DNA of 64,000 nucleotides, taken from assembly GCA_045541795.1 (NCBI GenBank), contig JAZQJV010000018.1, forward strand, positions 118,236-182,235. Reading direction: 5' to 3'. The notes under the pieces are model-generated. The model worked only from the letters and a program-made list of their open reading frames with translations. It had not been told where the DNA came from and did no database searches. The first letter of the stretch is position 1, and every line of letters begins with the position of its first letter. Source of the stretch: Patescibacteria group bacterium. Its GTDB lineage: Bacteria; Patescibacteriota; Microgenomatia; UBA1400; PJMF01. The position numbers and the translations under genes were made by a program. Shown here in pieces: positions 19,354 through 47,348 of the stretch.

Positions 19354-19355
19354 CT

Positions 19356-19787: not shown

Positions 19788-19793
19788 AAGCGT

Positions 19794-20297
19794 ATGGCGA
19801 TCAAGAAAAACAAAAAATCAGTAGCGCAAAAAGTGGTCAAGAAAGAAAAACCAAAAATCATGACTAAATCTGGTCGTGGCGCGGTAGCTATGGCTTCGCC
19901 CAAGGGCGAATACGTGGCTGCGGTGGGTCGCAGACGTACCTCTACAGCTCGCATCCGCCTCTATCCTCGTCCTGGTGATTTTGTCGTTAACGGCGTGCCC
20001 GCAGGCAAGTATTTTGAGAATATTCCCAATGCGGCCACATATTACAATCGCCCGTTTGCAATCACCAATTGTCTGGGACGTTTTGCGGTGACAGTCAAAG
20101 TCACTGGCGGCGGTAAAAACGGCCAACTGGGCGCGCTTGCTCACGGCTTGGCTCGAGCTTTGGTAAAAATGAATCCAGATTATCATGAATTATTTAAAGA
20201 TTCTTCCTTGCTTACACGTGATGACCGGATGAAAGAAAGCCGCAAGATCGGCACTGGCGGTAAGGCTCGCCGCAAACGGCAATCTCCAAAGCGCTAA
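19794..20297 (+). CDS. rpsI: Ribosomal protein S9 with a basic N-terminal extension
   Basis: The C-terminal motif GGGKNGQ...GTGGKARRKRQSPKR matches S9. Confidence 0.9.
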   Translation: MAIKKNKKSVAQKVVKKEKPKIMTKSGRGAVAMASPKGEYVAAVGRRRTSTARIRLYPRPGDFVVNGVPAGKYFENIPNAATYYNRPFAITNCLGRFAVTVKVTGGGKNGQLGALAHGLARALVKMNPDYHELFKDSSLLTRDDRMKESRKIGTGGKARRKRQSPKR

Positions 20298-26050: not shown

Positions 26051-26126
26051 ATTTGACTTTCTGTAAAATTTGTAGTACAACATTAACAATCATAAATTAG
26101 TGATGATTATAAACGAGGAACGTTAT

Positions 26127-27791
26127 ATGTCAAGGACTAAATATGAATTTGAATTATATCAGGCTGAGCCGATGGCCGACCTGAGAGAAGTTATTAATTA
26201 TGCCGCCCAAAGTTACGCCGATAAACCGGCGTTTATTTTTCAGCAGCACCTTGAGGATGAGCCAGAAAAGATCACTTTTGCTCAGTATCGGCAAGATATT
26301 AAAGAAGTCGCCTGCGGGTTGATTAGCGCGCTCCGGATTGACGTTAGTCGTCGTGACAGCAAAAAAATCGCACTGCTTGCGCCTAATAGTTACTGGTGGT
26401 CAGTCTGCTACCTGGCCGTCACTACCATCGGTCATGTCATCGTGCCTCTAGATCCTAATTTGCCTAGTGATGATTTACTATCATTTATGAAGCGCGCGGG
26501 AGTAAGTTCGGTCATTTTCACGCCTACTATCAATGATAAAATTGCCAGCCTTAAAAATTCTTTGGTCAAAATGAAGCATTACATCGCCATGGGCGAAGCC
26601 AGTGAGGCCACAATTACACTAGAAAAAGTGCGCGCTGCCGGCATCAAGCAACTGCAAAAAAATCCGGGTCTTTATGATGAGATCACTATTTTCCCAGATA
26701 GCCTGTCGACTTTGCTTTTTACCTCTGGTACCACTTCTACACCCAAAGCAGTAATGCTCACTCACAAAAACCTCGCCTCAGAGTTGGCTGGTATGCGCCA
26801 GTTTAACGACTTCCAAAACGAACGCCTACTTTCGGTACTTCCACTTTACCACTCGTATGAGTTTATGGTAGGGTTACTTTTCCCGATCTACTGCGGCTGC
26901 ACTATTTACTATTTGCCGGGCGGCTTGCGCGCTTTCACCGATCAACTCGAGCGTGTTCGGCCGACAGTGATGGTCTTAGTACCTTTGGTGATCGAGGAAG
27001 CCTACCGCCGGGTACGAGCAAGTTTGGATGATCCCGAAGATCACGAGGCCTTGGCGGCAGCCCTAAAAAATTACTACGGCGGACAACTGACGAGAATCAT
27101 TGATGGCGGCGCGCCTATCAATAGTGACATCGCCGAGATTTACGACCGCTCCGGCATCAAGCTCCTGCAAGGCTACGGCATCACGGAATGCTCACCAGTA
27201 GTTTCCATGAATCCAGACCGCTATTACAAACCACGCAGTATCGGTATGCCGTTGCCCAATATCCGGGTGAAGATTTTTGAGCCCGATAGTGAGGGAGTGG
27301 GGGAAGTCATCGTGCGCGGGCTCACAGTCATGCTTGGCTACTATAAAGATGAGCGCAAAACTGATCAAGCCATCATTGACAATTGGTTGCACACGGGTGA
27401 TTATGGCCGCTTCGATGAAGATGGTTTTCTCTATGTGGTGGGGCGCAAAAAAAACGTTATCATCGGTAAAAACGCCAAGAAAATCTACCCGGAAGAAGTA
27501 GAATATCATCTCACCTGCTGCCCGGAAATTCGTGAGGCGATGGTTTACGGTCAGGCAGTAGATGATGATACCAAAGTCGCGGCTTTACTGGTGATTGACG
27601 AGGATAATTTCCGCCGTTACCACAGCGAACTCGGCTCTAAGCCGACACCTGAACAAATCCAAAAAGTGATGGCGGGAGTAATTGAAGCTGTCAACCAGGC
27701 GAATGTCAAATACAAGCGCATCTATAATTGGCAGATTGTCACCGCCTTACCGCGGACAGCAACAGGTAAAATAAAAAGGAATCAAGTTTGA
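26127..27791 (+). CDS. Acyl-adenylate-forming enzyme (ANL superfamily; long-chain fatty-acid CoA ligase / FAAL-like)
   Basis: Core motifs TSGTTSTPKAV, GYGITE, TGDYGRFDEDGFLYVVGRKK and a C-terminal GKIKR. An SD (acgaggaa) lies upstream. The gene is divergent from the E1-like gene across a 76-bp gap. Confidence 0.75.
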   Translation: MSRTKYEFELYQAEPMADLREVINYAAQSYADKPAFIFQQHLEDEPEKITFAQYRQDIKEVACGLISALRIDVSRRDSKKIALLAPNSYWWSVCYLAVTTIGHVIVPLDPNLPSDDLLSFMKRAGVSSVIFTPTINDKIASLKNSLVKMKHYIAMGEASEATITLEKVRAAGIKQLQKNPGLYDEITIFPDSLSTLLFTSGTTSTPKAVMLTHKNLASELAGMRQFNDFQNERLLSVLPLYHSYEFMVGLLFPIYCGCTIYYLPGGLRAFTDQLERVRPTVMVLVPLVIEEAYRRVRASLDDPEDHEALAAALKNYYGGQLTRIIDGGAPINSDIAEIYDRSGIKLLQGYGITECSPVVSMNPDRYYKPRSIGMPLPNIRVKIFEPDSEGVGEVIVRGLTVMLGYYKDERKTDQAIIDNWLHTGDYGRFDEDGFLYVVGRKKNVIIGKNAKKIYPEEVEYHLTCCPEIREAMVYGQAVDDDTKVAALLVIDEDNFRRYHSELGSKPTPEQIQKVMAGVIEAVNQANVKYKRIYNWQIVTALPRTATGKIKRNQV

Positions 27792-28250: not shown

Positions 28251-28631
28251 TTACATCCCATCTACCAATGTGGGGACACTGATGCCACTAGCATCTGTGC
28301 CGAAGGCCACCGTCAGGACGAGCTGGAAAACGGCCCAGGTGCATGCCAACACTAAAATACCGATAATGGCGGCTAAAATCTGATTACGGGCGTCTTCGAC
28401 TTTACCCTTATCGCCGCCAGAAGCGATCCAGTGAATGGCGCCCATGATGAGGTGATAAAGAGTTAGTAAAGCCGCTACCATGATAGTGAGCGTAAACACG
28501 TTATGCAAAAGCGAGCCAGCACTGGGGTTGATTTTCAGACCGCCGACGCCATTGGGATCGAGATCGTTGAGATTAAAAACCCCCGCCGAAAACAGCGGAA
28601 TACTTGCCAGTTGACCGTACTTTTTATTCAT
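28251..28631 (-). CDS. TrbC/VirB2-like pilin family protein (paralog 1)
   Basis: Of 126 aa, with two hydrophobic helices separated by WIASGGDKGKVEDARNQ. Same architecture as 40090-40563 (MISGGNPSGFETAKNT). Confidence 0.45.
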   Translation of the reverse strand: MNKKYGQLASIPLFSAGVFNLNDLDPNGVGGLKINPSAGSLLHNVFTLTIMVAALLTLYHLIMGAIHWIASGGDKGKVEDARNQILAAIIGILVLACTWAVFQLVLTVAFGTDASGISVPTLVDGM

Positions 28632-28880: not shown

Positions 28881-29546
28881 ATGCAAAAAATTTGGCAAGC
28901 AATTGGTGATTTTTTGGTAGGGTTGATCTATCCACCTTTTTGCGTACGTTGCGGGCAAATCGGCACTCTTTTTTGCGATCGCTGCTATACTCATCTCAAT
29001 TTCATCACCACCAAAAACCTAGTGCCATCACTTTTTCGTGACGAAAAAAACCCGGTGTATCTGGAAAATGTGACAGCCCTGTGCGTCTACGACGCTGTAC
29101 TGAAAAAAGTTTTACATCAATACAAATACGGCGGCGTGCGCGATCTTTTCCGGTCATTGGCTTACTGGCTTTATGAATTTACATCCTGGGACGCAGACAT
29201 TATCACTTACATTCCCATTCATAAAAAAAGGAAAGTGGAGCGCGGCTATAATCAAGCCCAACTTCTAGCACAGGAATTGTCGCGCTTGTCCGGCATTCCT
29301 TGCGTCAGCCTGCTCGCTCGTCCCGTCTACAAACAAAAGCAAGCCTTAAGCAAAAATAAAGCCGAGCGTCTTGCCAAAACTAAAAACATTTTTGCCGCCC
29401 GCGAAAATGACCTCGATCGTCGTCTTAGAGTTCTAATAATTGATGACGTAGTCACTTCTGGCGCTACTCTCAATGAAGCGGCGCGGATTCTGCATGATGC
29501 CGGTTTCCAGCACATCCAAGCCTTGGCAGTAGCGCATGGAGATTGA
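28881..29546 (+). CDS. comFC: ComF family protein (ComFC-type phosphoribosyltransferase)
   Basis: N-terminal 4-Cys zinc finger (CVRCG...CDRCY) and a C-terminal PRTase motif LIIDDVVTSGATL. Confidence 0.7.
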   Translation: MQKIWQAIGDFLVGLIYPPFCVRCGQIGTLFCDRCYTHLNFITTKNLVPSLFRDEKNPVYLENVTALCVYDAVLKKVLHQYKYGGVRDLFRSLAYWLYEFTSWDADIITYIPIHKKRKVERGYNQAQLLAQELSRLSGIPCVSLLARPVYKQKQALSKNKAERLAKTKNIFAARENDLDRRLRVLIIDDVVTSGATLNEAARILHDAGFQHIQALAVAHGD

Positions 29547-31344
29547 TATGTCAGAGATTCAAGACATCAAAGATCGGGTGGTTTTAAGTGAAATTATAGG
29601 CCGTCACGTCAAGCTTACTCCGGCTGGCACTTACCTCAAGGGCCTTTGCCCTTTTCACCATGAAAAATCTCCTAGCTTCCACGTCAACGACCAGCTCGGC
29701 TTTTATAAGTGTTTTGGTTGCGGTGAGGGAGGGGATGTCTTTAATTTCCTGGAAAAATACGAAGGTATGACTTTCCGCGAAGCACTAGAGTATTTGGCAG
29801 AAATGACCGGCGTCCAGCTTGTCAACCGTCAAAGCTCGCCCGAAGACAAACTGCGCGAACGCGTCCTTAAATGCCTAGAGGAAGCCGCTAACTGGTATCA
29901 AAAAAACCTCTCTGAGCCGGTAGGTGAGCAAGCCCGAAAATATCTGCAAACGCGCGGTACTAGTAGCACACTGATCAAAGATTTCAAACTCGGTGCCGCT
30001 CCTGATGATTGGCAAGCACTCTGTACTTTCTTGCGCCGTCAAAAATTTAGTGATGAAGAAATTGTCGCCGCCGGCCTTGCTAGGAAAAAAGATACTGGCC
30101 GGATTTACGATGCTTTCCGTGGTCGGCTGATGTTTCCACTGCGCAACCATCGTGGTCAGGTAGTTGGTTTTTCCGGTCGTCAGCTCGTCACCAATCCCAA
30201 CGAAGGTAAATACATCAATACCCCAGAAACTATGGTCTATCACAAAGGCAAAATGTTATACGGTCTTTATGAACATGCGGGGCCGATCCGCAAAAATAAG
30301 ACCATGCTGATCGTGGAGGGCGAGTTTGACATGCTGTCTAGTACTCAGGCTGGAGTGGACTTTGTCTGCGCGATCAAAGGCTCAGCGCTTACGGCCGATC
30401 ATGCCACACTAATATCCCGGTACACCAATAAAGTTTTGCTCTCGCTTGACAGCGATAATGCCGGCATTAATGCCACCAAAAAAGCCATCAAAGCGCTGCG
30501 TCCGCAAGGAGTAGAACTGCGCGTAGTAATGATAGAAGGCGGCAAAGACCCAGATGAGCTTGCCCGGAGTAATCCTGCCTCATGGCGTGAACAGGTCAAA
30601 AAAGCAGTGAGTGTTTATGAATTTTTCATTCAAGTCATCACGACCCAAAACGATATTCGTACGATCGACGGCCAAAAACACGTCCTCCAGGAACTCGGGC
30701 AAATTTTCCCGCTGATAGACAACCGCCTGGAGTACGAATTCTACCTCAAAAAAGTCGCCTCCATCCTCAATCAAGACCTCGAAGTGGTGCGCGCTGACAT
30801 CCAGCAATACGGCCAACTCTTGCCAAAAGATCCGCCATCATCTCCTAAGCTCCAGGCTCATCCCCCCAAAAAATCCTCTGGCACTCCCAAGCTCAAGCGT
30901 CAGGAGGCCTATGTCTGGTTTCTTTTCTTGCAATGTCTGGCTCGGAGCGAGCAAATTGCCGATGCTAGTACTTACGTCATTCATGCTGACTGGCAGACGC
31001 CGTTTTTGCGCCAACTTGCCAGTGCCTATCAGGATTATTATCAAAAAAATCCTCAAGCCACGCTCAAGGGTTTTCATCAATCACTACCAGAGGATTTCCA
31101 GGATAAAGTCGCACTTTTGAGCCTTAATCAAAATTTCCTCACGCTGGCGGGCAAAACCAATCTCCAGACAGAATGGCTCAAGCAATCAAAAGCTCATGAA
31201 CGCCTGGTGGCGACCCAAAAAATTGCCGTACTTGCGGCGGAAATCGCTGCCTTGGATAAAATTGATGACCCCACTCTGGAGCAAGAAAAACACAAAAATG
31301 AGCTCCTCCAACAGGTGGTCGAGCTGCGCAGATTTAAACTCTAA
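29536..31344 (+). CDS. dnaG: DNA primase
   Basis: CHC2 zinc finger (CPFHHEKSPSFHV), RNA polymerase domain and Toprim (LIVEGEFDMLS...DSDNAG). Confidence 0.85.
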   Translation: MEIDMSEIQDIKDRVVLSEIIGRHVKLTPAGTYLKGLCPFHHEKSPSFHVNDQLGFYKCFGCGEGGDVFNFLEKYEGMTFREALEYLAEMTGVQLVNRQSSPEDKLRERVLKCLEEAANWYQKNLSEPVGEQARKYLQTRGTSSTLIKDFKLGAAPDDWQALCTFLRRQKFSDEEIVAAGLARKKDTGRIYDAFRGRLMFPLRNHRGQVVGFSGRQLVTNPNEGKYINTPETMVYHKGKMLYGLYEHAGPIRKNKTMLIVEGEFDMLSSTQAGVDFVCAIKGSALTADHATLISRYTNKVLLSLDSDNAGINATKKAIKALRPQGVELRVVMIEGGKDPDELARSNPASWREQVKKAVSVYEFFIQVITTQNDIRTIDGQKHVLQELGQIFPLIDNRLEYEFYLKKVASILNQDLEVVRADIQQYGQLLPKDPPSSPKLQAHPPKKSSGTPKLKRQEAYVWFLFLQCLARSEQIADASTYVIHADWQTPFLRQLASAYQDYYQKNPQATLKGFHQSLPEDFQDKVALLSLNQNFLTLAGKTNLQTEWLKQSKAHERLVATQKIAVLAAEIAALDKIDDPTLEQEKHKNELLQQVVELRRFKL

Positions 31345-34472: not shown

Positions 34473-35684
34473 ATGAACGGGAAAATAGTGCCGGTGTTTT
34501 TGGCGGCAGTTTTACTTCTCCCCTTATGGAGGGGAGATAGGCATACCACAGGTACAGCCAGAGGGGAGGTGCAAGCAGCCAGTAGTGCCACCACCAAAAA
34601 ACTCAAAGACGTGGCGCTTGGTGAGGTTATCCAAATTGGTGTTACTAAGTACGTCAAGATCGCTGCCAATAGCTATCAGGCGGTAAAGCCGTATACCTGT
34701 GCTGACCCAGTACTCACTTATGCCGGTGCTAGCAAAAGTTTCACTTATACGGGGAACTATCAGACATTTACGGCATATGCTGGGTGCCAGTACCAGGTGG
34801 AGCTGTGGGGTGCACAGGGCAATGACAACGGTTCAGTACTTGGCGGCAGAGGCAGTTACACTGCCGGATTATTTACGCCAGACGGCACAAGCTCACTTTA
34901 CGTTTATGTCGGCCAACATCAACAGTCAGTGCTAGCAGCTTCCTTTAATTGCGGTTCTACCGGCCCCTTAAATCACGGCGGCGATGCTGTTGGCTACGGG
35001 GGCGGCGGTGCTACAGATATTCGCACCGTAAGCGGAACTTGGGATAATGAAAACTCACTGCGTTCCCGGATCATTGTCGCCGCCGGCGGTGGTGGCAGTA
35101 AAATCTGGGGCGGTTGTAATTCAGTCGGATCTCAAGAAGGGATTTTTGCTGGCGGTATTAGCGGCTATACTGGTCCAGGCTCTGGTTACGCACCCAATGC
35201 TTGCGTCGCCGGGACTGGCGGTACTCAAGTGGCTGGTGGCAGTGCCTCTACGTGTACTGGTAATGGTGGCACCAGAGCGAGTGCGGGCAGCTTTGGTAAA
35301 GGCGGCAATCCTGGCAGTACATATAGCGCCGGTGGTGGCGGCGGCTGGTATGGTGGGGGCGGCGGCACTGCTAGTCACTGTTATATTGCCTGCGGCGGTT
35401 CTGGTTCCTCTTACATCTCCGGCCACACTGGCTGCGTCGGCGTCACTTCACTAAGCGACACTACTCCCAAATCCGGCTGCACCACCGGTACGACTAATAA
35501 TGCCTGTTCGCTTAGCCCTACTGGTCTGAGCTTCACTGACACCGTGATGATTGACGGTGCTGGTTATTCCTGGACAAATGTAAAAGGATCACTTCAACAA
35601 ATGCCCAATCCTGCCGGCGGTTACTACGCGAGCGGCGTGGGTCATACCGGCAATGGTGCCGCCCGTATCACCCGCCTTAATTAA
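34473..35684 (+). CDS. Secreted glycine-rich protein
   Basis: Signal peptide, then poly-Gly tracts (GGGGSKIWGG, GGGGGWYGGGGGTASHCY) and a Cys-containing C-terminal region. Function unknown. Confidence 0.45.
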   Translation: MNGKIVPVFLAAVLLLPLWRGDRHTTGTARGEVQAASSATTKKLKDVALGEVIQIGVTKYVKIAANSYQAVKPYTCADPVLTYAGASKSFTYTGNYQTFTAYAGCQYQVELWGAQGNDNGSVLGGRGSYTAGLFTPDGTSSLYVYVGQHQQSVLAASFNCGSTGPLNHGGDAVGYGGGGATDIRTVSGTWDNENSLRSRIIVAAGGGGSKIWGGCNSVGSQEGIFAGGISGYTGPGSGYAPNACVAGTGGTQVAGGSASTCTGNGGTRASAGSFGKGGNPGSTYSAGGGGGWYGGGGGTASHCYIACGGSGSSYISGHTGCVGVTSLSDTTPKSGCTTGTTNNACSLSPTGLSFTDTVMIDGAGYSWTNVKGSLQQMPNPAGGYYASGVGHTGNGAARITRLN

Positions 35685-35718
35685 TCACTTACCACTCTTT
35701 CTACCTTTTAGATGTGCT

Positions 35719-35748
35719 CACGCCCGCGAAAGCGGGCGCGGGTTTTTT
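35719..35748 (+). terminator. Rho-independent terminator
   Basis: gcccgc, loop gaaa, gcgggc, then gcggg and tttttt. Confidence 0.6.
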
Positions 35749-35841
35749 AATCTCGTATTTTGTACACAAAACATACCCATTTAACCCCTTGCAATGTGCA
35801 CCACACGATGATAAAATAAAAACGAGAAAGAAAGAATTTTT

Positions 35842-37059
35842 ATGCTCAACAACCGCAAACTGATTTACTTCATCTTAGTACTCGCCATTGCCATCGTGAG
35901 CGCCGGCATCGGCGCCTGGTTCGGCTACGGCCAAAAAGTAAGCACCGGCACCAAACTGCTAACTGCCAATCATGTTGCTCCCGCAGACTCATCACTTGCC
36001 GAAAGTCAAGAATACGAATCGCTGCTGGCCGATATCGAGGCTGGTAACTTTGCACAAACCGAGGCAGCTCCAACGACACCGGCCTCAATTGCTCCTGTCA
36101 TGTCTGGCAGCGTCGAGCCGTCAGGCACAGTTCCCAAAACCGTCTCCATCCCCACGCTGGGAGAAGCCAACGCCATCAGCTACACGAGCAGGGATCTCGG
36201 TGGCGGCAACTGGGAGAGTCACTTTTACATCTATACGGTGGATTTTGGCGGCGATGTCTTTAACTTTTTGGATCTGTCGCTTCCCGTCCATGCTGCCGCT
36301 TACGTGGGCGCCGTGCCAGGATTTAGTGACCACACCATGGTTTTCAGCTCTTCAGATGACGCTGGTATGCCGATCATTTATGCTGTCGACCTGGCAGAAA
36401 ATCCGGATCAATACGTCACTTTCGCCAGCGTCGCCGATCAGAAGGCCTTTTGTCAGTTGGTGCCTAACTGCGATCTTGGTTCCTCGATTTTTGCGCTGCA
36501 AAAAGTAAACGGCCGGCTCGCTTTTAACACCGGCGTAGATTGCTACGCTAATTCCTGTCCTACTTATTATATCGATTTGTTTAAAGGCGGTCACCTGGAA
36601 AACGCTACCAGTCAACCAGCAAACGCACCATTAGCTTATCCCAATAGCCTTTCTGCCAGTGACGGTTTCAGCGTCCAGCGGGAGGGCGGCAGCTTATATT
36701 TAACCGATCCTTCTGGTAAATCAAGCGAAGTTCTAAGCGGTGTCATTAGTTACTTTTTCTGGCGCAATCACATTTTTTACCTGCTCAATAACGACCGCAC
36801 CAACGTCTACCGTTTTGATATCCGCTCTGGCAAGTCGGACTCAATCTATACAGTCACTGGCGGCCGCTTGCTTGGTCTGTCCACCATGGGTCAAAATAAA
36901 ATCTTGCTCACCTTCCAACCCGATGGCTCCAATCAGTGGCAGTCCCGGATCATTGATCATGATGGTCAAGCGGCGAGCTTCACCTATTACCAAGCTGGCG
37001 CAGCTGTACCCGTAGATTTCAGCGACACTCACAGTATTACGGTGCAGTACTTTGAGTAG
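35842..37059 (+). CDS. Hypothetical membrane-anchored extracytoplasmic protein
   Basis: N-terminal TM (LIYFILVLAIAIVSAGIGAWF) and a Gly/Ser/Thr-rich body. No motif assigned. Confidence 0.4.
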   Translation: MLNNRKLIYFILVLAIAIVSAGIGAWFGYGQKVSTGTKLLTANHVAPADSSLAESQEYESLLADIEAGNFAQTEAAPTTPASIAPVMSGSVEPSGTVPKTVSIPTLGEANAISYTSRDLGGGNWESHFYIYTVDFGGDVFNFLDLSLPVHAAAYVGAVPGFSDHTMVFSSSDDAGMPIIYAVDLAENPDQYVTFASVADQKAFCQLVPNCDLGSSIFALQKVNGRLAFNTGVDCYANSCPTYYIDLFKGGHLENATSQPANAPLAYPNSLSASDGFSVQREGGSLYLTDPSGKSSEVLSGVISYFFWRNHIFYLLNNDRTNVYRFDIRSGKSDSIYTVTGGRLLGLSTMGQNKILLTFQPDGSNQWQSRIIDHDGQAASFTYYQAGAAVPVDFSDTHSITVQYFE

Positions 37060-37212
37060 TCACTAGCAAAATTGCAGAGTGCATCAACGCTCACAAAAAT
37101 GTCAGCGCAAAAATTAGCAGTCTCATGTCTACTCTGCTAATGATTTTAATGGTGTTAAAAAATACTGAAACACAAAGCAAAATTCATTTATTGTACACAA
37201 TAAATACTCAAT

Positions 37213-38655
37213 TTAATCTTCCACCACGTATGCCACCAGCTCATCACCAGCTTGGAAGTCGAGCTTTTTTTGCCGGAAAGTGATACCACCCTCAGTTGGC
37301 GCTTTAAAATGATCCACTTCGAGTTTACCGTGCATCATTGACGAGACAATGGGATCGGCGATGATCTGTCCGTCACGCTTGAGATGGTATTTATCATTTT
37401 TCTTGAGTTCACCACTGGTCACTTTCACGCCCGCAATCCGCAAGCCTTTCATCTCAAAAATTTCTTGGATCGTAGCCGTGCCCGTCACTACCTCATCAAT
37501 GGTTGGCTCCAAAAGCTTGAGCATCTTTTTTTGGATGTATTCAATCAACTCATAAATAATGTCATATGATTTAATCTTGACACCATGCGCTTTGGCCACT
37601 TGGGTGATATGTGGACTGACTTTCACTTGGAAACTTAAAATCTTTGCCCCGGCAGTGTGTGCTAATTCTACATCTGTATCCGTCACTTCGCCCACACCTT
37701 GGCTAATGATCTCGACACTGTCCGGATCGCAGTTGGCAGCAATTGCCTCCAGCGTTCCCTGGGTGTCAGCTTTGAGGATAAATTTGAGCTTGTTGCTATC
37801 GCCTAAAACAGAAAAATCAATTCCGGCATAAGGATCATTACTGACACTTTGCTTCTCCACTGCTGGGCTGTGGTCTTGAGGATGGCACGTGACGATCGAA
37901 CCGACGGCAGGCACATCTTTGAAACCAATTATTTGTCCCGGCTCACCAGGAAGAAGTTGCTGTACCGGTTTACCAAAATCATTGAGGATGTTTTTGACTT
38001 TACCACTCGTCTCTGCCGTGTAAATATCATCACGCACTTTGAGCGTGCCCGACTGGACGATAATATTAGCGACCGCTCCCCGGCGTGGATCTTTGGCCGA
38101 CTCAATCACTACAGCCTGGAAGTCATCATTTGGATCGGCTTGCAGCTCTAGCAAATCAGCCGTAATGACCAAAGTTTCCAATAGCTTGTCAATTCCTTTG
38201 CCGGTTTTGGCGGATATTTCTACTGCTTCGGTGTCGCCGCCAAAATCAGTCACCACTACATCATGCTCGGCCAGCTGTGACTTGACGTTGATCACATTAA
38301 TGTCTGGTAAATCAATTTTATTGATGGCTACCACCACCGGTACACCAGCCGTTTTGATGTGACGGATAGACTCGATGGTTTGCGGTTTGACGCCATCATT
38401 AGCGGCCACTACTAGTACTACAATATCCGTGATCGCTGCACCTCGCTCCCGCATCGCGCTAAAAGCAGCGTGGCCTGGTGTATCAATAAAAGTCAGCTGA
38501 GCATCGCCCACCTTTACCTGGTAAGCGCCGATATGCTGAGTGATCCCCCCTTGTTCTTTGGCCGTGAGCCGCGAGCGGCGCAAGAAGTCCAAAAGCGTCG
38601 TCTTACCGTGGTCTACATGGCCCATGATGGTGATGACTGGGGATCTTTTGCTCAT
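37213..38655 (-). CDS. infB: Translation initiation factor IF-2, short form (480 aa) lacking an N-terminal region
   Basis: The G domain begins at residue 8 ([14 protein letters not shown]) and IF-2 C-terminal domains follow. The gene sits downstream of nusA. Confidence 0.85.
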
Positions 38656-39959
38656 GCTTTCTTTGCTAAAGGATTCGGGGTCAGAAGCGACGGCGAATTC
38701 TGATAATCAGTTTCTACTTGCTTGGTCGCGCGCTCAATGATTGCTTGCTTGTCTTCGGCTGAAAGCACTTCATTATCCTGCAAGCGGTTTTGGAAACGCA
38801 CGATGTCGTTACTATTGGTCAGCTTAAGGTTGACGAGCTCTTCGCGGACTTGCGGGCTTAGTCCAAAACTATCAATTTCATATTCCTCGCTACCGCTCAC
38901 TTGCTTGGCCACGTCGCCAGCTTCATCCACGATCGTGATCGACATGCCCAAAAGTTTGCCGGCTAAACGCACGTTTTGCCCACTGCGACCGATCGCGAGA
39001 GAAATTTGATCCGCCGGTGCTTTTACCGTGGCGGTATTAGTCTTGGCATCATAGTTGATGGTTAAGTTTTCGGCTGGCGCCAAAGCCGCAGCAATTAGCT
39101 GTGTCTTATCATCATAAAAGGGGATAATGTCAATTTTTTCGTTATTTAGTTCCTTGATGATTTCTTGTACTCGGACACCACGCTGGCCGACACAAGAACC
39201 TACCGGATCTACGCCTTGAGGCTGGTTGCTGGAGACCGCCAACTTGGTGCGGATACCCGCTTCCCGGGCGATCATACGGATCTGGACGGCCCCACTGGCA
39301 ATTTCTGGGACTTCTCGCTCAAATAGTAACTCTACCAAGCGGGCATCGGCCCTGGAGACGATAATCGTCCGGTGACCAGCCACCTCACCAATCTCCTTGA
39401 TGAGTACGGCCAGCCGAGCGTTACTCTTGTAAAACTCACCGCGCATCTGCTCGCGTGGCGGCATCGCAGCATAACCACGTCCCACATCCATCCAGACCAC
39501 ACCCCGCTCCATCCGGACTACTTGCGCCGTAATCATCTGACCGATTTGATTTTGGTATTCACCAATGATCTGGTCACGCTCGGCATCACGCATCCGGGCA
39601 ATAATAATTTGCTTAGCCAACTGTGCTGCAATCCGCCCAAAACCAGACGGCGTAACGTCTTCGGCTTGCGTCTCATCATAGCTTTCGTCTTCGGGATCAT
39701 CAGGATGAAGCCGTGGCGCACGGAAAACATACATCTCGCCAGTAAGCCGGTCCACTTGACCCCAATAATAAAAAGCGGGATCTAGAGGGATGTCATTTTC
39801 TCCGCCTGCCTGCTTGCGGTAAGCACCGACAAGGCCCGCTTCAATCGCCAGATAAACTTGCTCTGGATCAATTTTGCGTTCGGCAGACACCTGGGCGATG
39901 GCCGCGGCAAATTCTGTTCTCTGGGATTTTTTTGCTTTTAGATCGTTTTTTCTTGCCAT
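38652..39959 (-). CDS. nusA: Transcription termination/antitermination factor NusA
   Basis: S1 and tandem KH domains (GQRGVRVQEIIKELNNEKIDII) in the conserved nusA-infB arrangement. Confidence 0.85.
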   Translation of the reverse strand: MARKNDLKAKKSQRTEFAAAIAQVSAERKIDPEQVYLAIEAGLVGAYRKQAGGENDIPLDPAFYYWGQVDRLTGEMYVFRAPRLHPDDPEDESYDETQAEDVTPSGFGRIAAQLAKQIIIARMRDAERDQIIGEYQNQIGQMITAQVVRMERGVVWMDVGRGYAAMPPREQMRGEFYKSNARLAVLIKEIGEVAGHRTIIVSRADARLVELLFEREVPEIASGAVQIRMIAREAGIRTKLAVSSNQPQGVDPVGSCVGQRGVRVQEIIKELNNEKIDIIPFYDDKTQLIAAALAPAENLTINYDAKTNTATVKAPADQISLAIGRSGQNVRLAGKLLGMSITIVDEAGDVAKQVSGSEEYEIDSFGLSPQVREELVNLKLTNSNDIVRFQNRLQDNEVLSAEDKQAIIERATKQVETDYQNSPSLLTPNPLAKKA

Positions 39960-40089
39960 GTTATCCTTGCTTGCTTACTAAAAATCGGCAACTGGGAGGA
40001 TGCCGAGCTTGGCTAAGGTCAATAACTACATTATATCACAAAAACTGCTTCTTGTCAAGGGCTAATTTTGGTGTATAATTGGGGAACTT

Positions 40090-40563
40090 ATGAAAAAATG
40101 GAGTGTGATCGCAGTTTTAATTTTGAGCCTGTTTGCGGGACGGCCAGCACATGCTGCCCCTTACGAAAGTTGGAAGAGTTCCAAAATGTGCACAGGCGCT
40201 AAAGACACGCTTTCTGAAGACGTTGCCACTATCGCTGGTATCGTTTGCCTGATCGCCAATGCCTTAAATGCCGTCCTGACGCTGTTTTCCTTCGTCGGCT
40301 TCCTCATGTTTGTGTATGCCAGTTTTATGCTCATGATCTCTGGCGGTAATCCCAGCGGCTTTGAAACAGCGAAAAATACCTTTACTTACGCAATTTTTGG
40401 CTTCGTGCTGGCTTTATCATCATTTGTGATCATCAATCTTATTTCTTATTACACTGGCCTCAATAGCTTCTTTGTCATCAAATTCTTGCCCAATACTATT
40501 TCTGGCAGCGCCAGCAGTGGCGGTACAGGCGGTAGCGGTACGGGAGGTACAAGCGGGCCATAA
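40090..40563 (+). CDS. TrbC/VirB2-like pilin family protein (paralog 2)
   Basis: Signal peptide followed by two hydrophobic helices flanking MISGGNPSGFETAKNT. Its stop and the next gene's ATG are 1 nt apart. Confidence 0.45.
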   Translation: MKKWSVIAVLILSLFAGRPAHAAPYESWKSSKMCTGAKDTLSEDVATIAGIVCLIANALNAVLTLFSFVGFLMFVYASFMLMISGGNPSGFETAKNTFTYAIFGFVLALSSFVIINLISYYTGLNSFFVIKFLPNTISGSASSGGTGGSGTGGTSGP

Positions 40564-40564
40564 T

Positions 40565-43500
40565 ATGCGCATTGATAAATTCTTACCGGCAAAACGTTGG
40601 CAAACTGTTATCATTGGGGTCAGTTTGGTTTTTGGCTGCATGATGTCGCTGCAAAATTTGCACCTAGACCTAGTTTCTGACGTCTGGAGTGCGCAGTATC
40701 AGGATGTTTATAGTCAAGTGATGAGTATTTTCCAGTCACGAGGTGAGACCATCCCTACTAATGTCGCCGCCGACATCATCGAGCGTTCTGGCGGTGATCA
40801 AAATCAAGCTATAGCTACTCTGGAAAAGTATCTCAACGTCTACAAAGCTTTGCAAGCGCGTAATCCTGATGTCTCTTCTCTAGTCATCAGTTTGATCGCC
40901 AAACAGTACCCAGATAATTACTCACAGGCCAGCACAGCTTTGTCGCAGACGGTCTCGACAGCTAAGCAGATCCAGGACTACCAAAATATAAATACTATTG
41001 CGGCGCAAATTGTGGCCGCTTTAGGGATTAATAATAGTTTCACGCAGACACTCTCAGACGCTTATGACGTCGTCAATAATGCCAGTAATATGGGCCAGCA
41101 GATGAACGTCAACAATATCGCCGCTCAAATTTTGTCTGCGCTCGATCTTACCGGAGAACTATCCTCGGGTTTTGGCAGCCAGGCTGATTTGCAAAATACG
41201 CTTCAAAGCATGACTAGATCGTCCCTCTTGCAAAGTCAAGACGCTAAGGATGTCCTCGGTGCCTTAGACATTTTCACGCCGGGTAATTTCTCGTCTGATG
41301 CCGGCAGCGTGAGTAAAATTGCCAGTGATCTTTTAGGCGGAAAACTTTCAGACACGGTCAAAAGTGTGGTAGATAAAGAAATTGCCGAAAGTTTGGGCGC
41401 GCTTAATCTAGGTAGTTTGTCTGGTCTTAGCGAAGGTAAAGGGAATTTTTCTGGCATTCTTGAGCAGGTGACATCTAAAACTGCCGGTGAAGCTGGCAAA
41501 TACAAGGATGTCTACGAAACCGTCACCAAAGGTATGAGCACTCAGGACATCGTCAAAATGGGCACCGACAAAATCAAAGACAGTATCTTAGATAATTCTA
41601 CCCTCGACCAGGAAAAAGCCGCTCAGGAAACCAAAAAAGAACTTGACCAAGAGGCAAAAAAAGCCGTAGACGAGGAAAAAAAACTACAGGATGAAGGATT
41701 GATTGATCCGTCGAGCGTACCAAGCAGTAGCCCTTCGCCTTCTTCAACTCCCGATCCTTCAGCCAGTCCTTCACCATCACCTTCCGCAAGTCCTTCTCCT
41801 GGTGCCAGCCCGTCGCCAGGGGCGAGCCCGAGTCCCTCTCCGTCTGCTAGTCCGTCACCGAGCGCTTCGCCGTCGCCGTCAGCGTCACCGAAAGCAACTG
41901 AATACATCAGAAGTGGTGCACAGGGATCCTTTATCACCGCTATCATAGATAAACTCAGAATGAGCGGCACGGCCGAAAATATTAAGGAAGGTTTTGCTGC
42001 TAAAATGATCGCCAAGAATTTATCGCTGGAGGGATATGAAGCCTATCATATCAAAACTGTCAGCCGTTTGCAGCCCTATATGAATTTTTCTCATCGCCGT
42101 AACAATGTAGATTTTAGCCAAGCCAAAGTACCCCTCATGCGCAATAGTAACTACAAACCTGAACGGCTTAATTCTGCCGAAAATTATTACGGCTATAATG
42201 CCCGGGTAGGAGTGAATGACACTGATATCCTTACTGAGTCAGCCTGGGTCGCCAAAATGTCGCAGCCTGTCAAATGCAGCCTCAAAGCCGCCAATCTTGC
42301 CTATATCGTGCGCACTTGCGACATTCTTCATGAAGACACATGCGAAGGTCTATACCTGACCGCTGATGGCAGTGAAACCATCAAAGATACTAAGATCAAA
42401 GTCCATGATTTGGCTCTTGCGGTGACAGCCATTCTCATCACTGATGGCAGCCAACGTGACGAGTTAATCAATGCGGTGGCGCTCGCTTTGGCGACGGGCA
42501 AAGGCGATCTTAGCGGCATCATGGGACAAGTAACCAATATTATTAATAGTATTGGCGGTGAGAATTCAGATGTACTGTCGCGTTTGCTGGCTATGGCTTC
42601 AGATAAAGTCATGGAACCTATCTATGATAACCGGATTCCTTTTTGTGAGACACTTTATAATACTCCAGCCACAGCGGCTACGGATGAGACGGGCTTACTG
42701 CTAGAAATGGCCAAAGGCAACATCCAAGCGGAGGATATGGGCAAAATTTATCTGCGCTGGGCGATGGAAAAATTGGACTTTTACCTGGCACGTGAATACC
42801 GCACTGCATACCTAGTGCAAACTACAAGAATCTGCCCGGTACGTCGGCAATTTATCTGCTCTAAATCCTCACCCGTATATAAGTATGCACCAGCACCCAC
42901 AGGCACCTGCTTAGTACAACTCCCCTGTATACCTGGTATCACCCCAGATCAGGTGCGTGTATATCCATTCAAAATCCCAGATCTTTTCACCAATAAGAAT
43001 TTTTGCAAAACGTCTGATCTAGAATATCCTGGGCTCTTGAATGACGTCAAATGTGAGCCCTCTGAGCAATTCCAATATGCAGACATGATACAAGAATATC
43101 ACGATCCGGCACTTTTACAAAAAAATTTCCTCATGAATATGGAGCAGATCCGCGCTGAACGTGAAGAGTTTTTAGCAAAACGCAAAACTCGCGCCCAGCA
43201 CTCTGCCGAAGCCTGTACGGCCAATAGTGCTACCACTCTTGCCAAAATGCAAGAGGCCGACTTAACATGCACCGACAAAAATGTGCTTAGCGGTGATCTG
43301 ATTGACTGTGAAAACTGCAATGGCGAAGCCAGACGAGTCAAAGCGGCTCTAGTGAAAGTCATCAACGGTGCCATCAAACATGGCGAACTTTACAAAATCG
43401 AAAATCCCAACGGCAACTCGCCGGGTACTGATGATGTCAGCGGCGGGCTTAGTAGTTCCGCCATTACCACTTCTGCCGTGAATCCGCTCGAACCAGCTAT

Positions 43501-44137
43501 CACTGATGTCAACTATTTTAATGATTTCTGCTTATGTCGGGAAAAAATGTTCCTTTGGGTCCCGTGGTTTGCCTACGCTAAACTTGATTACTTTGTCGTC
43601 GAGCCGATCAGTGATGAGGTGGAAAGTATTGAGGAGCACATTGTCTCGCCGTTTTTCCGCACTAGTCAATACCAGCAATTCCTCAAAAATGACAGCCGTC
43701 AAAATCGTAAAATCCAAGTCACTGGCGCCAAGAGTAACCTGAGTGACATCCCGATTTGGCTGCCTGCTGGCGGGCCGATCAGTAATGTCTTTTTGCAGCA
43801 GCAAGTTTTATACAATCAAGATCAAGACATTTATAAGAACTTTAAAAAATGCGTTTCCGCCGCCTCATATTTTGAGTCACAGTGCATGGGTGCGGATAGC
43901 GGCAAAGAGGATGAGGCTTTTGACGAGGCTAAAAGTCAGTGCATATTGCGTGCGGAAGCTGGCTGTACTCGTGGCTGTGGCGAGAACGGAGTGATTTCGC
44001 TTACCTATGGTAGCGAGGACGGTAAGACTATTATTGACTGTGAATGCGGCAATACTGGCGGTGAAGACAGTAGCGGGCCAAGAAATTATCATTATGAATG
44101 TGAAAATTCCACCGATACTGAATGGGATGACGTCTAA
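40565..44137 (+). CDS. Large (about 1190 aa) membrane-anchored surface protein with Ala/Gln-rich repeats, a Pro/Ser linker and a Cys-rich C-terminal region
   Basis: N-terminal TM (WQTVIIGVSLVFGCMM), the internal repeat INTIAAQIVAALGINNSF / VNNIAAQILSALDLTGEL, and (SPSPSA/SPSPGA)n. The likely start is MRIDKF at about 40565; the track start at 40472 overlaps the pilin gene. Confidence 0.5.
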   Translation: MRIDKFLPAKRWQTVIIGVSLVFGCMMSLQNLHLDLVSDVWSAQYQDVYSQVMSIFQSRGETIPTNVAADIIERSGGDQNQAIATLEKYLNVYKALQARNPDVSSLVISLIAKQYPDNYSQASTALSQTVSTAKQIQDYQNINTIAAQIVAALGINNSFTQTLSDAYDVVNNASNMGQQMNVNNIAAQILSALDLTGELSSGFGSQADLQNTLQSMTRSSLLQSQDAKDVLGALDIFTPGNFSSDAGSVSKIASDLLGGKLSDTVKSVVDKEIAESLGALNLGSLSGLSEGKGNFSGILEQVTSKTAGEAGKYKDVYETVTKGMSTQDIVKMGTDKIKDSILDNSTLDQEKAAQETKKELDQEAKKAVDEEKKLQDEGLIDPSSVPSSSPSPSSTPDPSASPSPSPSASPSPGASPSPGASPSPSPSASPSPSASPSPSASPKATEYIRSGAQGSFITAIIDKLRMSGTAENIKEGFAAKMIAKNLSLEGYEAYHIKTVSRLQPYMNFSHRRNNVDFSQAKVPLMRNSNYKPERLNSAENYYGYNARVGVNDTDILTESAWVAKMSQPVKCSLKAANLAYIVRTCDILHEDTCEGLYLTADGSETIKDTKIKVHDLALAVTAILITDGSQRDELINAVALALATGKGDLSGIMGQVTNIINSIGGENSDVLSRLLAMASDKVMEPIYDNRIPFCETLYNTPATAATDETGLLLEMAKGNIQAEDMGKIYLRWAMEKLDFYLAREYRTAYLVQTTRICPVRRQFICSKSSPVYKYAPAPTGTCLVQLPCIPGITPDQVRVYPFKIPDLFTNKNFCKTSDLEYPGLLNDVKCEPSEQFQYADMIQEYHDPALLQKNFLMNMEQIRAEREEFLAKRKTRAQHSAEACTANSATTLAKMQEADLTCTDKNVLSGDLIDCENCNGEARRVKAALVKVINGAIKHGELYKIENPNGNSPGTDDVSGGLSSSAITTSAVNPLEPAITDVNYFNDFCLCREKMFLWVPWFAYAKLDYFVVEPISDEVESIEEHIVSPFFRTSQYQQFLKNDSRQNRKIQVTGAKSNLSDIPIWLPAGGPISNVFLQQQVLYNQDQDIYKNFKKCVSAASYFESQCMGADSGKEDEAFDEAKSQCILRAEAGCTRGCGENGVISLTYGSEDGKTIIDCECGNTGGEDSSGPRNYHYECENSTDTEWDDV
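41700..41895 (+). repeat. Tandem Pro/Ser/Ala codon repeats encoding an SPSPSASPSPGA linker
   Basis: Read directly in the DNA and in the translated protein. Confidence 0.7.
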
Positions 44138-45725
44138 ATGGCGCCAACTTCAATCTTGGCGCTGCTGGCTGCCATACCTGGTTTTGGCACTAGCGATGGC
44201 GATCGCCATCGCCCTCAAAAAGGATTATTACATTGATGAAATTTACAGCTATGGTCTCGCCAATAGTCTGACGCCGCAAATAGATATTAGCAATCCTGGT
44301 ATTTTCCGGCCGGCTTGGTCAGTGTTTCGCCCGTACGTGACCGCTTCCTGGTGGCACGTGCTTGATTTACCTTCTGTGTGGCAAAATCAGGCCGCTGATG
44401 TCCATCCTCCATTTTACTATTTGTTGCTGCATGTGGTTTCCTCACTTGCGCCAGGTATTTTCTCGCGTGGCTTTGCGGGCTTGATTAATATCATTTCTGC
44501 TCTAGTGTGCCTTTATTTTGTGGGGAGTATCTTGCGTCGTCTGGAAGTCAGCCCAGCTGCTCGGCATTGGATCAGCCTGTGTCTCTCGCTCCATCCAGCC
44601 ATCATTGGCGCTGGTAGCTTTTTGCGGATGTACTTGTTGCTGTCAGCACTCCTTTTGGCCATTACTGATCAAACGCTTGCCCTCATCCAAAATCCTGTGT
44701 CAATCAAATCCTGGTATCGCACTCCGCTTACGTGGCTTGTCACCGCCGCTTGCCTTACCCATTACTATGCATACGTCTATCTGATTGGACTTGTCGGTGC
44801 CGCTCTCATTTTGTTTTGGCGGCGTGGTCAAAAACAAGCCTGTCGCCATTTGTTGGCTTGTGCCGTTGCTGGCGTCGCCAGCGCCTTAATACTATTCCCG
44901 TATGCGCTGCGCCATGTATTTTTTGCTGACCGCGGGACTCAGTCATGGAGCAACTTTTTGCAGCTGTCTGCCTTTCGCGCGCGTTTAGATCTTTATACGA
45001 ATTTGCTCAATAGACAGCTTTTTGGCGGTTTTGGCTGGTTGCTTATTGGTATGATCGGTATTGCTTTGGCGGTTTATCTTTGGCAAGGAAGACGCCGGCT
45101 CCAAGCGAGTGTAAATAAACTTGGTCTTTGGCTGGTGGTGACGGCGCCAGCGTGTGCTTACCTGATTCTTGTTGGTATTTCTTCAGTCTTTACTGTGGAC
45201 CGGTACATGCAGCCGCTGTATTTCCCCGTTATCACCATTGTGTACGGCAGTTTGGCACTACTAATTTGGCGCCATGCGCCTTCTCGTTGGCGATCAGGAC
45301 TATTAATAGCAGTACTCAGCGTGTGTACTGTTTTTTCTTGGCGCGTACAAGAATGGCCCTATCTTTATTGGGAGAGAGAGCAAGAAATTGCCAGAGCACG
45401 CGCTCACGAGGGCTTAGATTGCCTCTTCCTGTATCAAGATCGTTGGACCGCTCTTTACTATTTTGAGGAATTGCGTCATTACCGTTCTGTCACCTTTATC
45501 CCTGTAGAGGCCAATGACCGCATCCGTTATTATATGGAAGTCATCAAGCACGCCCATATAGATGAATTAGTAGTCGCTTTTGGTTTGGGTGATGACGATC
45601 CTCGTGAACCAGAAGCAGTTCTTAATAAATTCCTTGATATATCGGGATTTTTAGAGTACAAGCAAACAATTTGGCAGCATAGCCCCAAATCAGCAAGTTA
45701 TCTAGTGGGCAGTAAAGTCGACTGA
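44127..45725 (+). CDS. GT-C membrane glycosyltransferase (ArnT/PMT-like, GT39/GT83-type)
   Basis: VHPPFYYLLLH motif and many TM helices. The ATG at about 44127 overlaps the upstream stop. Confidence 0.5.
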   Translation: MTSKWRQLQSWRCWLPYLVLALAMAIAIALKKDYYIDEIYSYGLANSLTPQIDISNPGIFRPAWSVFRPYVTASWWHVLDLPSVWQNQAADVHPPFYYLLLHVVSSLAPGIFSRGFAGLINIISALVCLYFVGSILRRLEVSPAARHWISLCLSLHPAIIGAGSFLRMYLLLSALLLAITDQTLALIQNPVSIKSWYRTPLTWLVTAACLTHYYAYVYLIGLVGAALILFWRRGQKQACRHLLACAVAGVASALILFPYALRHVFFADRGTQSWSNFLQLSAFRARLDLYTNLLNRQLFGGFGWLLIGMIGIALAVYLWQGRRRLQASVNKLGLWLVVTAPACAYLILVGISSVFTVDRYMQPLYFPVITIVYGSLALLIWRHAPSRWRSGLLIAVLSVCTVFSWRVQEWPYLYWEREQEIARARAHEGLDCLFLYQDRWTALYYFEELRHYRSVTFIPVEANDRIRYYMEVIKHAHIDELVVAFGLGDDDPREPEAVLNKFLDISGFLEYKQTIWQHSPKSASYLVGSKVD

Positions 45726-47348
45726 TTATTTTAGCCGCCACACTTGTAGTGTTGGCGCATCTGCCTGTGGTCGCTCATACTCCTGTACCAATGCGACGGG
45801 CTTGATGTCCTCATCCAAATCCAGCCGGTGCGAATTAGCGACCAGTAAGACCTCGTCATATTCATCCCAGTTTGGCTGGGGAGAAAGTTTATCAAAATTG
45901 TGTATCGGCGGCGCACCCAAACCTAGGACTTTGATGTTGTCACGCACACTACTTTTCCATAAATATATCTGCAAACCGTCGGGTAATGTCCCCACAAAAC
46001 CTTCAGTAAGAACCAACAGCTTCTTACTCGCCGCCAACTCTTGTAAATATTCGGCCGTTTGCTTGATCCCATGTCCGGAAGACCAGTCCCAAAATAATTG
46101 CTGTCTGTCGGCTGGCAGTAGCGGCAGTTTAAATGGATTGGTATGAATCCGCCAGCTCCAATAATGGCCAGTAACTAATACAATTAAAATTAACGCGAGT
46201 TTAAAATTTATCAATTCAATCCGACGAATCAGGGATAAGCACACCACAAAGCTGACGATAATAAACGGTACCACCGGTAGAAAATAACGCGGGTAGACGA
46301 CTTTACCCAGCATGATGATAGGCAAAGCATAGGCGAATCCTGAGATTAAAATCAAAAGCGGTAACGCTGTCCGTGAACGCCGGCGACAAACATAAATCAA
46401 AGCCATACACAAAGTAGTGACAGTCATCGTGAGTCCAGTATAATTTGTAATTACGCGGGCAAAGTTGAGCACATTGTAAGTTAAAATCGCAAACGGTTGA
46501 CGCAAAAAGTCACCCACGCTATATAAAAAGTCACCACCGCGACTAAATAGCATCGGGAATGCGGGGCTGATTTTTAAGACAGCAAAAATTATCACTCCGA
46601 TCGCACTAATGACAAAAAGTGGCATTAACTGCGAGGCAAGCGAGCGCCAAAAACTTTCTCGGTTTTGTTTGTTTTTTATCTTTGACCACTGCGCGTGGTA
46701 AAACGGCACAGTGGCTAAAACTGGCGCCAACAAAAGACAGGAAAACTTTGTCCACATCGCCAGTCCCCACGAGGTGCCAGCAGCCAGCGTCCACCAGTAC
46801 CAACTGTTTTTGTCCTTGTCTCGGCTCAAATATGCGCCAGTCGCTTGATAAGTAAGGATGAACGTGAGACTGATGAAAAAAGACACGGCGCTGTCCATCA
46901 GTGCCAAACGATTAGTCAGCATTAATCCAGGCGAGAAAATTACCAGCAACCCTGCTAAAAGTTGATAACGCCTTTTATGGACGAAAACTTTGACCATATA
47001 AATCGTCACGAGCAATTGACCCAGACCAAAAAGAATCGCCGCCACCCGTCCTGCCACCAGCGGATCGGCAAAAATTTTGATCAAAGGTATCGCCGTCCAA
47101 ATGACCAGCGGCGTTTTACCATCATTGAGAGCAAAAAAACTATACTGCTGCCAATCAGAAATAGCCAGCTGCGACCAATAAATATAAATTGCTTCATCCA
47201 CAAAAACAGGGATGGATTGCAGTTTGGCCAGCCGCTGCCAACAAAAGATTACAATGATTATTCCTAAAAGATAATAGTACCAATACCGAGCTAAATGAAT
47301 GCTAGCCTTGAGCGTTTTTTTCAATTTTGTATACCAATCCCACCACAT
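45726..47348 (-). CDS. GT-C membrane glycosyltransferase (ArnT/PMT-like)
   Basis: VFVDEAIYIYW (the DE motif) and KTPLVIW, with at least 10 TM helices. Confidence 0.5.
   Translation of the reverse strand: MWWDWYTKLKKTLKASIHLARYWYYYLLGIIIVIFCWQRLAKLQSIPVFVDEAIYIYWSQLAISDWQQYSFFALNDGKTPLVIWTAIPLIKIFADPLVAGRVAAILFGLGQLLVTIYMVKVFVHKRRYQLLAGLLVIFSPGLMLTNRLALMDSAVSFFISLTFILTYQATGAYLSRDKDKNSWYWWTLAAGTSWGLAMWTKFSCLLLAPVLATVPFYHAQWSKIKNKQNRESFWRSLASQLMPLFVISAIGVIIFAVLKISPAFPMLFSRGGDFLYSVGDFLRQPFAILTYNVLNFARVITNYTGLTMTVTTLCMALIYVCRRRSRTALPLLILISGFAYALPIIMLGKVVYPRYFLPVVPFIIVSFVVCLSLIRRIELINFKLALILIVLVTGHYWSWRIHTNPFKLPLLPADRQQLFWDWSSGHGIKQTAEYLQELAASKKLLVLTEGFVGTLPDGLQIYLWKSSVRDNIKVLGLGAPPIHNFDKLSPQPNWDEYDEVLLVANSHRLDLDEDIKPVALVQEYERPQADAPTLQVWRLK

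Follow-up and report, generated by a model that had tools for sequence, protein, structure and literature searches.

A conserved gene pair encoding a VirB2-like pilin and a Cys-rich exported protein, a candidate pilus-associated cassette beside nusA

The peptidoglycan hydrolases associated with type IV secretion systems (T4SS) include VirB1, PrgK, TraG of pIP501 and TcpG, and VirB1* of Agrobacterium promotes T-pilus assembly. VirB2-like pilins have been described from ultrasmall bacteria with a monoderm envelope, where they are essential in the one species tested: they are widespread in the Patescibacteria and essential in Southlakia epibionticum, and in this group VirB1 homologues are rare and adhesins were undetected (PMC12102498, PMC10633639, PMC12857230). 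PrgB-type adhesins are reported to be absent from the Patescibacteria, and among 1948 assemblies that contain both VirB4 and a VirB2-like pilin, 813 show no pilin gene in the vicinity of virB4 (PMC12102498). Here we describe a two-gene cassette located on a 64,000-nucleotide stretch of contig JAZQJV010000018.1 (assembly GCA_045541795.1, positions 118,236 to 182,235), referred to as the window, whose coordinates are used unless another locus is named. The first gene, pil1, encodes a VirB2-like pilin, and the second an exported protein of 1190 amino acids, the giant, which contains a rare Cys-rich module. An initial annotation of the window had proposed that the giant is a pilus-tip adhesin or part of an attachment organelle; we favour a cassette composed of a pilin and a pilus-associated, cell-wall-engaging protein that takes an adhesin-like form in the window, a reading to which we give slightly less than an even chance. 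The invariable coupling of the pilin to a large exported protein makes the latter a concrete, testable candidate for a pilus partner.

The pilin gene and its coupling to the large gene

The pilin genes, the large gene and the subdivisions of its product are as follows:

40090-40563, plus strand: pil1, VirB2-like pilin of 157 amino acids (PF18895 match, hydropathy, ortholog alignment)
28251-28631, minus strand: pil2, solitary PF18895 paralog of 126 amino acids (PF18895 match)
40565-44137, plus strand: giant exported protein of 1190 amino acids, with no Pfam or NCBIfam domain
40697-41674, plus strand: N-terminal helical domain of the giant, residues ~45-370 (class A alignment, see below)
41705-41899, plus strand: low-complexity Ser/Pro/Ala linker, residues 381-445 (65 residues; composition 43% S, 32% P)
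41900-43888, plus strand: conserved Cys-rich module, residues ~446-1108, ~660 residues (family alignments)
43889-44134, plus strand: short extra Cys-rich C-terminal tail, residues 1109-1190 (alignment, direct reading)

Both small proteins match the T4SS_pilin family PF18895, whose gathering score is 26.6 bits: pil2 lies above it with 28.4 bits, and pil1 reaches 26.0 bits (E=1e-5). The same profile is matched by 17 of 17 aligned relatives at E<=0.01, the best at 3.3e-9, and a precomputed database annotation gives PF18895 for the identical protein P0026. PF04956 (TrbC/VirB2), the profile with which the initial annotation had suggested checking the two paralogs, was additionally matched by one of the 17 aligned relatives, and in NCBIfam the small proteins showed weak matches to a Mycoplasma integrative and conjugative element (ICE) pilin-like family. 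The proposal that the small proteins are VirB2-like is thereby supported through PF18895, with pil1 just under the cut-off; judged from these profiles, the assignment appears solid at family level.

Based on hydropathy, both paralogs possess a signal-peptide-like N-terminus and the two hydrophobic helices attributed to them at the outset (hydrophobic windows at residues 41-86 and 96-124 of pil1, and 38-70 and 83-112 of pil2). The signal peptide of pil1 comprises residues 1-22, ending AHA|A, and the mature protein continues with helix 1 (residues ~45-83), the loop SGGNPSGFETAKN, helix 2 (residues ~97-122) and a Gly/Ser tail. Its two conserved Cys residues, C34 and C53, are part of a subtype-specific motif of the mature N-terminus, W..C(V/T)G..G.L..DVATIQG..C(L/V)IAN.LN, which is missing from pil2 in the alignment. 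The overall identity between the two proteins is 20%. Their loops, SGGN-PSGF-E-T-A-K-N in pil1 and SGGD-KGKV-E-D-A-R-N in pil2, have SGG[ND]-x4-E-x-A-[KR]-N in common, so that the spacing of the shared core is as first described, but the middle G that had been included in this core falls in different columns of pil1 and pil2. The pil2 gene also has no partner gene. In a related locus, L014, the pil1-type pilin (7323-7952) carries a 70-residue insertion after the signal peptide, in which a Cys-rich stretch is combined with a Pro/Ser linker (CTCDNPARTGTICVPASECVTGC...SPTPSSSPTPS), element types that are also present in the giant.

The stop codon of pil1 (TAA) ends at 40563 and the start codon of the giant (ATG) is located at 40565, leaving the 1-nt gap noted initially; this ATG is favoured over upstream in-frame TTG or GTG codons by the alignment with the homolog P0001. 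The co-occurrence of the pair in related genomes, which the initial annotation had put forward as a check, was observed throughout: a pil1-type pilin open reading frame (ORF) is found directly upstream of the module gene, on the same strand, in 11/11 related loci having upstream sequence (L001, L002, L003, L005, L006, L008, L011-13, L014, L015 and L016, the contig of L016 starting within the pilin gene). The two genes are co-oriented, tightly spaced and co-inherited, with pilin-to-module gaps of -4, -4, 1 (window), 2, 6, 6, 7, 8, 27, 48 and 62 nt. The genes nusA-infB are located divergently upstream in 9 of the 10 testable loci. The pair is retained over module identities of 26-68%, including relatives at 26-28%, and also in L002, whose neighbourhood has changed. 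Adjacency by accident, or an annotation artefact that brings together two unrelated genes, would have to recur over this whole range of identities and in the changed neighbourhood of L002, and is extremely improbable; the retention of the pair in every one of these loci excludes chance adjacency. Small proteins outside the VirB2/TrbC profiles and a pair not conserved elsewhere, the two outcomes named in the initial annotation as speaking against its proposal, were thus both absent, given the PF18895 matches and the conservation of the pair.

The identities to the window decrease in the following order:

NusA: 85 to 60%
pilin: 67 to 43%
module protein: 56 to 26%

This order fits an exposed and fast-evolving partner of the pilin, and it suggests that the cassette is old within its lineage and vertically inherited, with a fast-evolving large gene.

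The Cys-rich module family and its enzyme fusions

The giant displays a single hydrophobic segment, at residues ~12-30. The initial annotation had placed an N-terminal transmembrane anchor here; the segment is present, and the classic signal peptides of the relatives raise the possibility that it is cleaved off as a signal peptide instead of serving as an anchor. The helical N-domain that follows is characterized by the motifs AAQI..A, AAQIL.ALD.TGEL and LAALNIFTPGNF.SDA, and includes the INxIAAQI(V/L)xAL repeats recognized earlier, which are two segments (residues 141-154 and 181-194). This domain is found in class A members only (defined below), its identity to P0001 is 38% versus 68% for the module, and its profile had no match among PDB sequences. 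The Pro/Ser linker was correctly identified from the start; its length differs among the relatives. Likewise, the Cys-containing C-terminal region was found as claimed, with 24 Cys residues between positions 571 and 1179 that are all conserved in P0001 (24/24). Ten of them are family-wide (C571, C694, C757, C765, C788, C814, C830, C915, C918 and C989). The C-terminal tail occupies the place that SLT, 3D, SpoIID or esterase domains take in distant relatives. The C-terminus reads ...YECENSTDTEWDDV and the giant contains no LPXTG motif, its hydrophobic segment being N-terminal only; no SLT, CHAP, M23 or other enzymatic domain was detected in it with Pfam and NCBIfam, and no match to the VirB5/TraC/CagL families with Pfam. 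Neither structure nor homology connected the giant with VirB5-type tip proteins or with any known adhesin.

The linker is also a site of assembly chimerism. A 438-residue 'short giant' on a JGI contig was considered as evidence for a split gene and rejected as an assembly chimera with its breakpoint at the linker: the contig (L010; JGI 3300011008, Ga0139362_1019996), compared with window positions 36657-41668, is 95% identical up to nt 41668 and continues with unrelated sequence. In L002 (GCA_964418385.1, CAYQLH010000016.1) a scaffold gap of 100 N at ~9750-9950 splits the giant gene, so that the public call P0025 (650 residues) covers the C-terminal part only; the true L002 giant has ~1800 residues and includes an additional, long region of repeats (GSSDLKNILSQT-like).

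The module is recognized by the motifs PLLRN..Y...RLNSAE.YYGY, YRT.Y.VQ..RICPV, PDQVR.YPFK.PDLF.NKNFC, INC.NC, D.RQN+K and PGAGPI.N.F..QQ.LY, and it is rare. Among 5.8 billion proteins, a word-indexed search returned no more than two true homologs for the giant; when the full-length giant served as query, 23 of the 24 matches were spurious, due to the Pro/Ser linker, and the search was repeated with the C-terminal region alone. When 1.84 billion cluster representatives were searched exhaustively with a profile, 16 carried the module, 13 of them at E<1e-30, and a scan of the GTDB species representatives yielded six module loci. The module had no match in Pfam, NCBIfam, PHROG or among PDB sequences (the sole PHROG match of the giant was a linker artefact), and was found neither in plasmids, phages and viral contigs nor in a JGI metagenome scan. 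These results point to a discrete, previously undescribed module that would form a new protein family with no detectable relatives, and to a cassette that does not appear to be borne on mobile elements.

Two classes can be distinguished among the members. Class A (the window, P0001/L001, L002/P0025, L003, L005, P0044 and P0045) is arranged in the order signal peptide or anchor, helical N-domain, variable repeat/linker and module, with no enzymatic domain. Class B proteins combine a signal peptide with the module, which is flanked by hydrolytic domains; these genes occupy the same nusA-pilin context as those of class A. The class B domains are:

SLT / SLT_3: P0046, P0047, P0049, P0054 (= L008)
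Peptidase_M23: P0052, P0053, L006
3D: P0048
SpoIID: P0050
PHB-depolymerase-type or other alpha/beta esterases: P0052, P0053, P0054
EEP nuclease-like: P0047
C39-like peptidase: P0054

No CHAP domain was seen in any family member. What appears to be new is a rare family of Cys-rich modules, which are invariably accompanied by a specialised VirB2-like pilin and in many cases carry cell-wall hydrolases as fusion partners.

The exchange of SLT, M23, 3D, SpoIID, esterase and nuclease domains on a constant module is also what would be expected of a polymorphic effector or toxin, in which the module would be a delivery or receptor-binding scaffold for swappable 'warheads' and the small protein a holin-like exporter, an immunity factor or a chaperone; the small membrane protein gene immediately upstream, often overlapping, recalls holin-endolysin cassettes in the same manner. 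We consider this improbable, since the small protein carries its own signal peptide and its matches are to pilin rather than holin families (neither pil1 nor pil2 matched a holin family in PHROG or Pfam, and there is no PHROG match), and the large proteins have Sec signals of their own and would not need a holin. Moreover, the small protein is far better conserved than its partner, unlike immunity proteins, and each genome contains the cassette only once, in a fixed position rather than in variable islands.

The same domains bear on a second alternative, namely that the module protein remodels or scaffolds the peptidoglycan of the bacterium itself, for instance where the cell divides or grows, with the small protein as a pilin-derived membrane partner or regulator. 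SLT, M23, 3D and SpoIID are typical autolysin and remodelling domains, the fixed chromosomal place beside nusA-infB and the vertical inheritance would suit a housekeeping function, and T4SS genes were not found nearby. However, the fusions with esterases and an EEP nuclease are better suited to attack or scavenging, module and N-domain have diverged far more rapidly than the neighbouring housekeeping genes, the window's version is devoid of any enzyme, and the family is confined to a tiny clade, while wall remodelling is universal. Housekeeping of the own wall is in our judgement unlikely, albeit the stronger of these two alternatives.

Proposed role and genomic setting of the cassette

The reading that we favour, a pilin with a pilus-associated, cell-wall-engaging protein, can be outlined as follows. 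The cassette would be a chromosomal, vertically inherited unit of two genes, divergent from nusA-infB and placed behind an apparently strong promoter. Its first gene would provide a VirB2-like pilin that is exported through Sec and belongs to a special subtype, distinguished by the added two-Cys N-terminal motif, and its second gene, co-transcribed and usually translationally coupled, a Sec-exported and probably disulfide-stabilised protein built on the ~660-residue module. Both proteins would cooperate at the cell surface, outside the membrane, the pilin as a membrane-embedded or filamentous element and the module protein as its dedicated partner, engaging a cell wall that could be the host's or the bacterium's own. 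Such an engagement is suggested because the module elsewhere carries lytic transglycosylase, M23, 3D, SpoIID, esterase or EEP nuclease domains. The class B proteins would resemble VirB1 and PrgK in role. In class A, the fast-evolving helical N-domain and the flexible Pro/Ser linker would take the place of the enzymes, most likely forming a non-enzymatic adhesin or spacer. A pilus-tip adhesin, as initially proposed for the giant, would be plausible for the window, and in view of the enzyme fusions of the relatives, engaging or penetrating a cell wall becomes a likelier role than adhesion alone.

Several points weigh against this reading. The PF18895 score of pil1 is 0.6 bits under the Pfam gathering score. 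As stated in the initial annotation, no VirB4-type ATPase was found, and neither VirB6, VirB3, VirD4 nor a relaxase was matched by the scanned ORFs of the 64-kb window, in which a few ORFs (26100-27791 and 29536-31344 among them) were judged by eye only. The window's giant has no enzyme domain, so that its link to the cell wall comes from its relatives. The structure prediction suggested earlier gave a model of moderate quality only (predicted local distance difference test, pLDDT, 57; predicted template modelling score, pTM, 0.57), and no fold match was obtained for the module model. In addition, the reading presupposes contact between pilin and giant and the formation of filaments, and the epibiotic lifestyle considered in the initial annotation is presumptive. 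The flanks of the related loci also contained no T4SS machinery (VirB4, VirB3, VirB6), and a functional connection of the cassette with a T4SS is putative.

A bolder form of the same proposal, possible though doubtful, is that the cassette encodes part of a new lineage-specific organelle, in which the module acts as a pilus-borne 'drill' that presents interchangeable enzymes to the envelope of another cell, with a helical adhesin domain instead in the subclade of the window. The muralytic, esterase and nuclease fusions suggest an action of the apparatus on a target cell. If true, the module protein would be a first candidate to supply the adhesin and the VirB1-like activity that are missing from the T4SS-like pili of monoderm bacteria.

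The elements surrounding the cassette are as follows:

40030-40079, both strands: pair of back-to-back, near-consensus sigma-70-type promoters between nusA and pil1 (consensus scan)
37213-38655, minus strand: infB, conserved divergent neighbour of the cassette
38652-39959, minus strand: nusA, conserved divergent neighbour of the cassette
44127-45725, plus strand: polytopic membrane protein of 532 amino acids from MTSKW, with an 11-nt overlap with the end of the giant
45726-47348, minus strand: PMT/GT39-family glycosyltransferase, convergent to the cassette, the adjacency being kept in L001 and L003 only

The -35 hexamers of the two putative promoters overlap in a TTGACA/TTGTCA palindrome. The minus-strand promoter, TTGACA-17-TATAAT, points to nusA-infB and has 12/12 consensus matches, and the plus-strand promoter, TTGTCA-16-TATAAT (40052-40079), points to pil1 and has 11/12; their promoter function is deduced from this pattern match. 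The pil1 ATG is located 10 nt downstream of the plus-strand -10 hexamer, and the mRNA would hence be nearly leaderless. No terminator-like site was found 3' of the giant gene on its own strand.

The membrane protein gene that overlaps the end of the giant gene is kept only in the closest relative, L001, and lies outside the conserved core. Judged solely from its DEIYSY motif, its product may be a GT-C-type glycosyltransferase; no significant similarity was found. This motif resembles DEAIYIY of the convergent PMT/GT39 enzyme, and the likeness, together with the Pro/Ser linker, suggests that the giant may be O-mannosylated by the adjoining PMT-type enzymes.

The window is ordinary chromosome with a GC content of 46%, identical to that of the cassette. 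It encodes functions in translation and replication (infB, nusA, lepA, dnaG and a ribosomal-protein/rpoA cluster) and in central metabolism (enolase, iPGM, ATP-dependent DNA ligase and glycogen-type enzymes), and further contains several GT-C and GT4 glycosyltransferases and a small defence island. Gene content and pilin family would be compatible with the Patescibacteria (candidate phyla radiation, CPR). At 90% identity, S12, S7 and EF-G of the cassette genomes are grouped into clusters with only one to three members, which indicates a very sparsely sampled lineage. Ribosomal proteins, EF-G and NusA (window 16368-20297; L014 661-4070) fall into 90%-identity clusters of only 1-13 members, and in L014 the S15 gene is located between the S12-S7-EF-G cluster and infB.

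Other regions of the window include a defence-like island (1736-6736), flanked by two YhcG/DUF1016 PDDEXK nucleases (1736-2824, plus strand, and 5609-6736, minus strand) and containing a Schlafen/AlbA_2 protein (2846-4273) and a homolog of Shedu SduA (4424-5602, minus strand). A nuclease of the staphylococcal type that is secreted and contains Excalibur Ca-binding domains (7356-8429) is followed by an Ltp-like surface lipoprotein (8439-9119), a pair that would be consistent with nucleic-acid scavenging. An ATP-dependent DNA ligase of the archaeal/eukaryotic type is encoded at 20390-22195. At 23957-27791, a 710-residue protein with a C-terminal ThiF-like domain adjoins a 563-residue ORF that is AMP-binding-like by eye only. 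The gene at 34473-35684 encodes a bacterial protein in which an ALK/LTK glycine-rich domain was recognized (PF12810, E=6.6e-34), and the 405-residue ORF that follows it (region 34473-37059) belongs to no family. A homolog is present in L003.

Comparison with known systems

Holin-endolysin cassettes differ from the present one in that the module proteins carry their own signal peptides or anchors and the pilin has no holin match. With PrgB-type and other Pro/Ser-stalk adhesins, the giant has in common that it is large and exported and that a low-complexity, stalk-like linker separates its domains, but LPXTG, adhesin, Ig-like and glucan-binding domains are missing from it. The minor pilins of the VirB5/TraC type are likewise accessory proteins encoded with a major pilin, and the predicted helical N-domain makes a tip role of the giant conceivable; unlike VirB5, the giant is five times larger and Cys-rich, has a different architecture and shows no VirB5/CagL sequence match.

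The hydrolases of the VirB1/PrgK type resemble the distant members of the module family, which are N-terminally anchored or secreted, multidomain, equipped with SLT and/or M23 and encoded beside a pilin gene. In contrast to those hydrolases, the element common to the family described here is a novel Cys-rich module and not a hydrolase; the giant of the window lacks SLT, CHAP and M23, and the fusion partners within the family extend to esterases and a nuclease.

The closest counterparts of pil1 are the pilins of S. epibionticum ML1 and Nanosynbacter lyticus TM7x, which belong to PF18895, the Pfam family that pil1 matches just below the gathering score. These pilins share with pil1 the signal peptide and the two hydrophobic helices separated by a short polar loop, and, as with pil1 and pil2, several divergent paralogs are encoded chromosomally in each genome (PMC12102498, PMC10633639). 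Unlike the members of the ML1 and TM7x pilin arrays, pil1 is located outside an array and away from virB4, and it is distinguished from these pilins by its fixed large-gene partner, its fixed adjacency to nusA and its extra two-Cys N-terminal motif.

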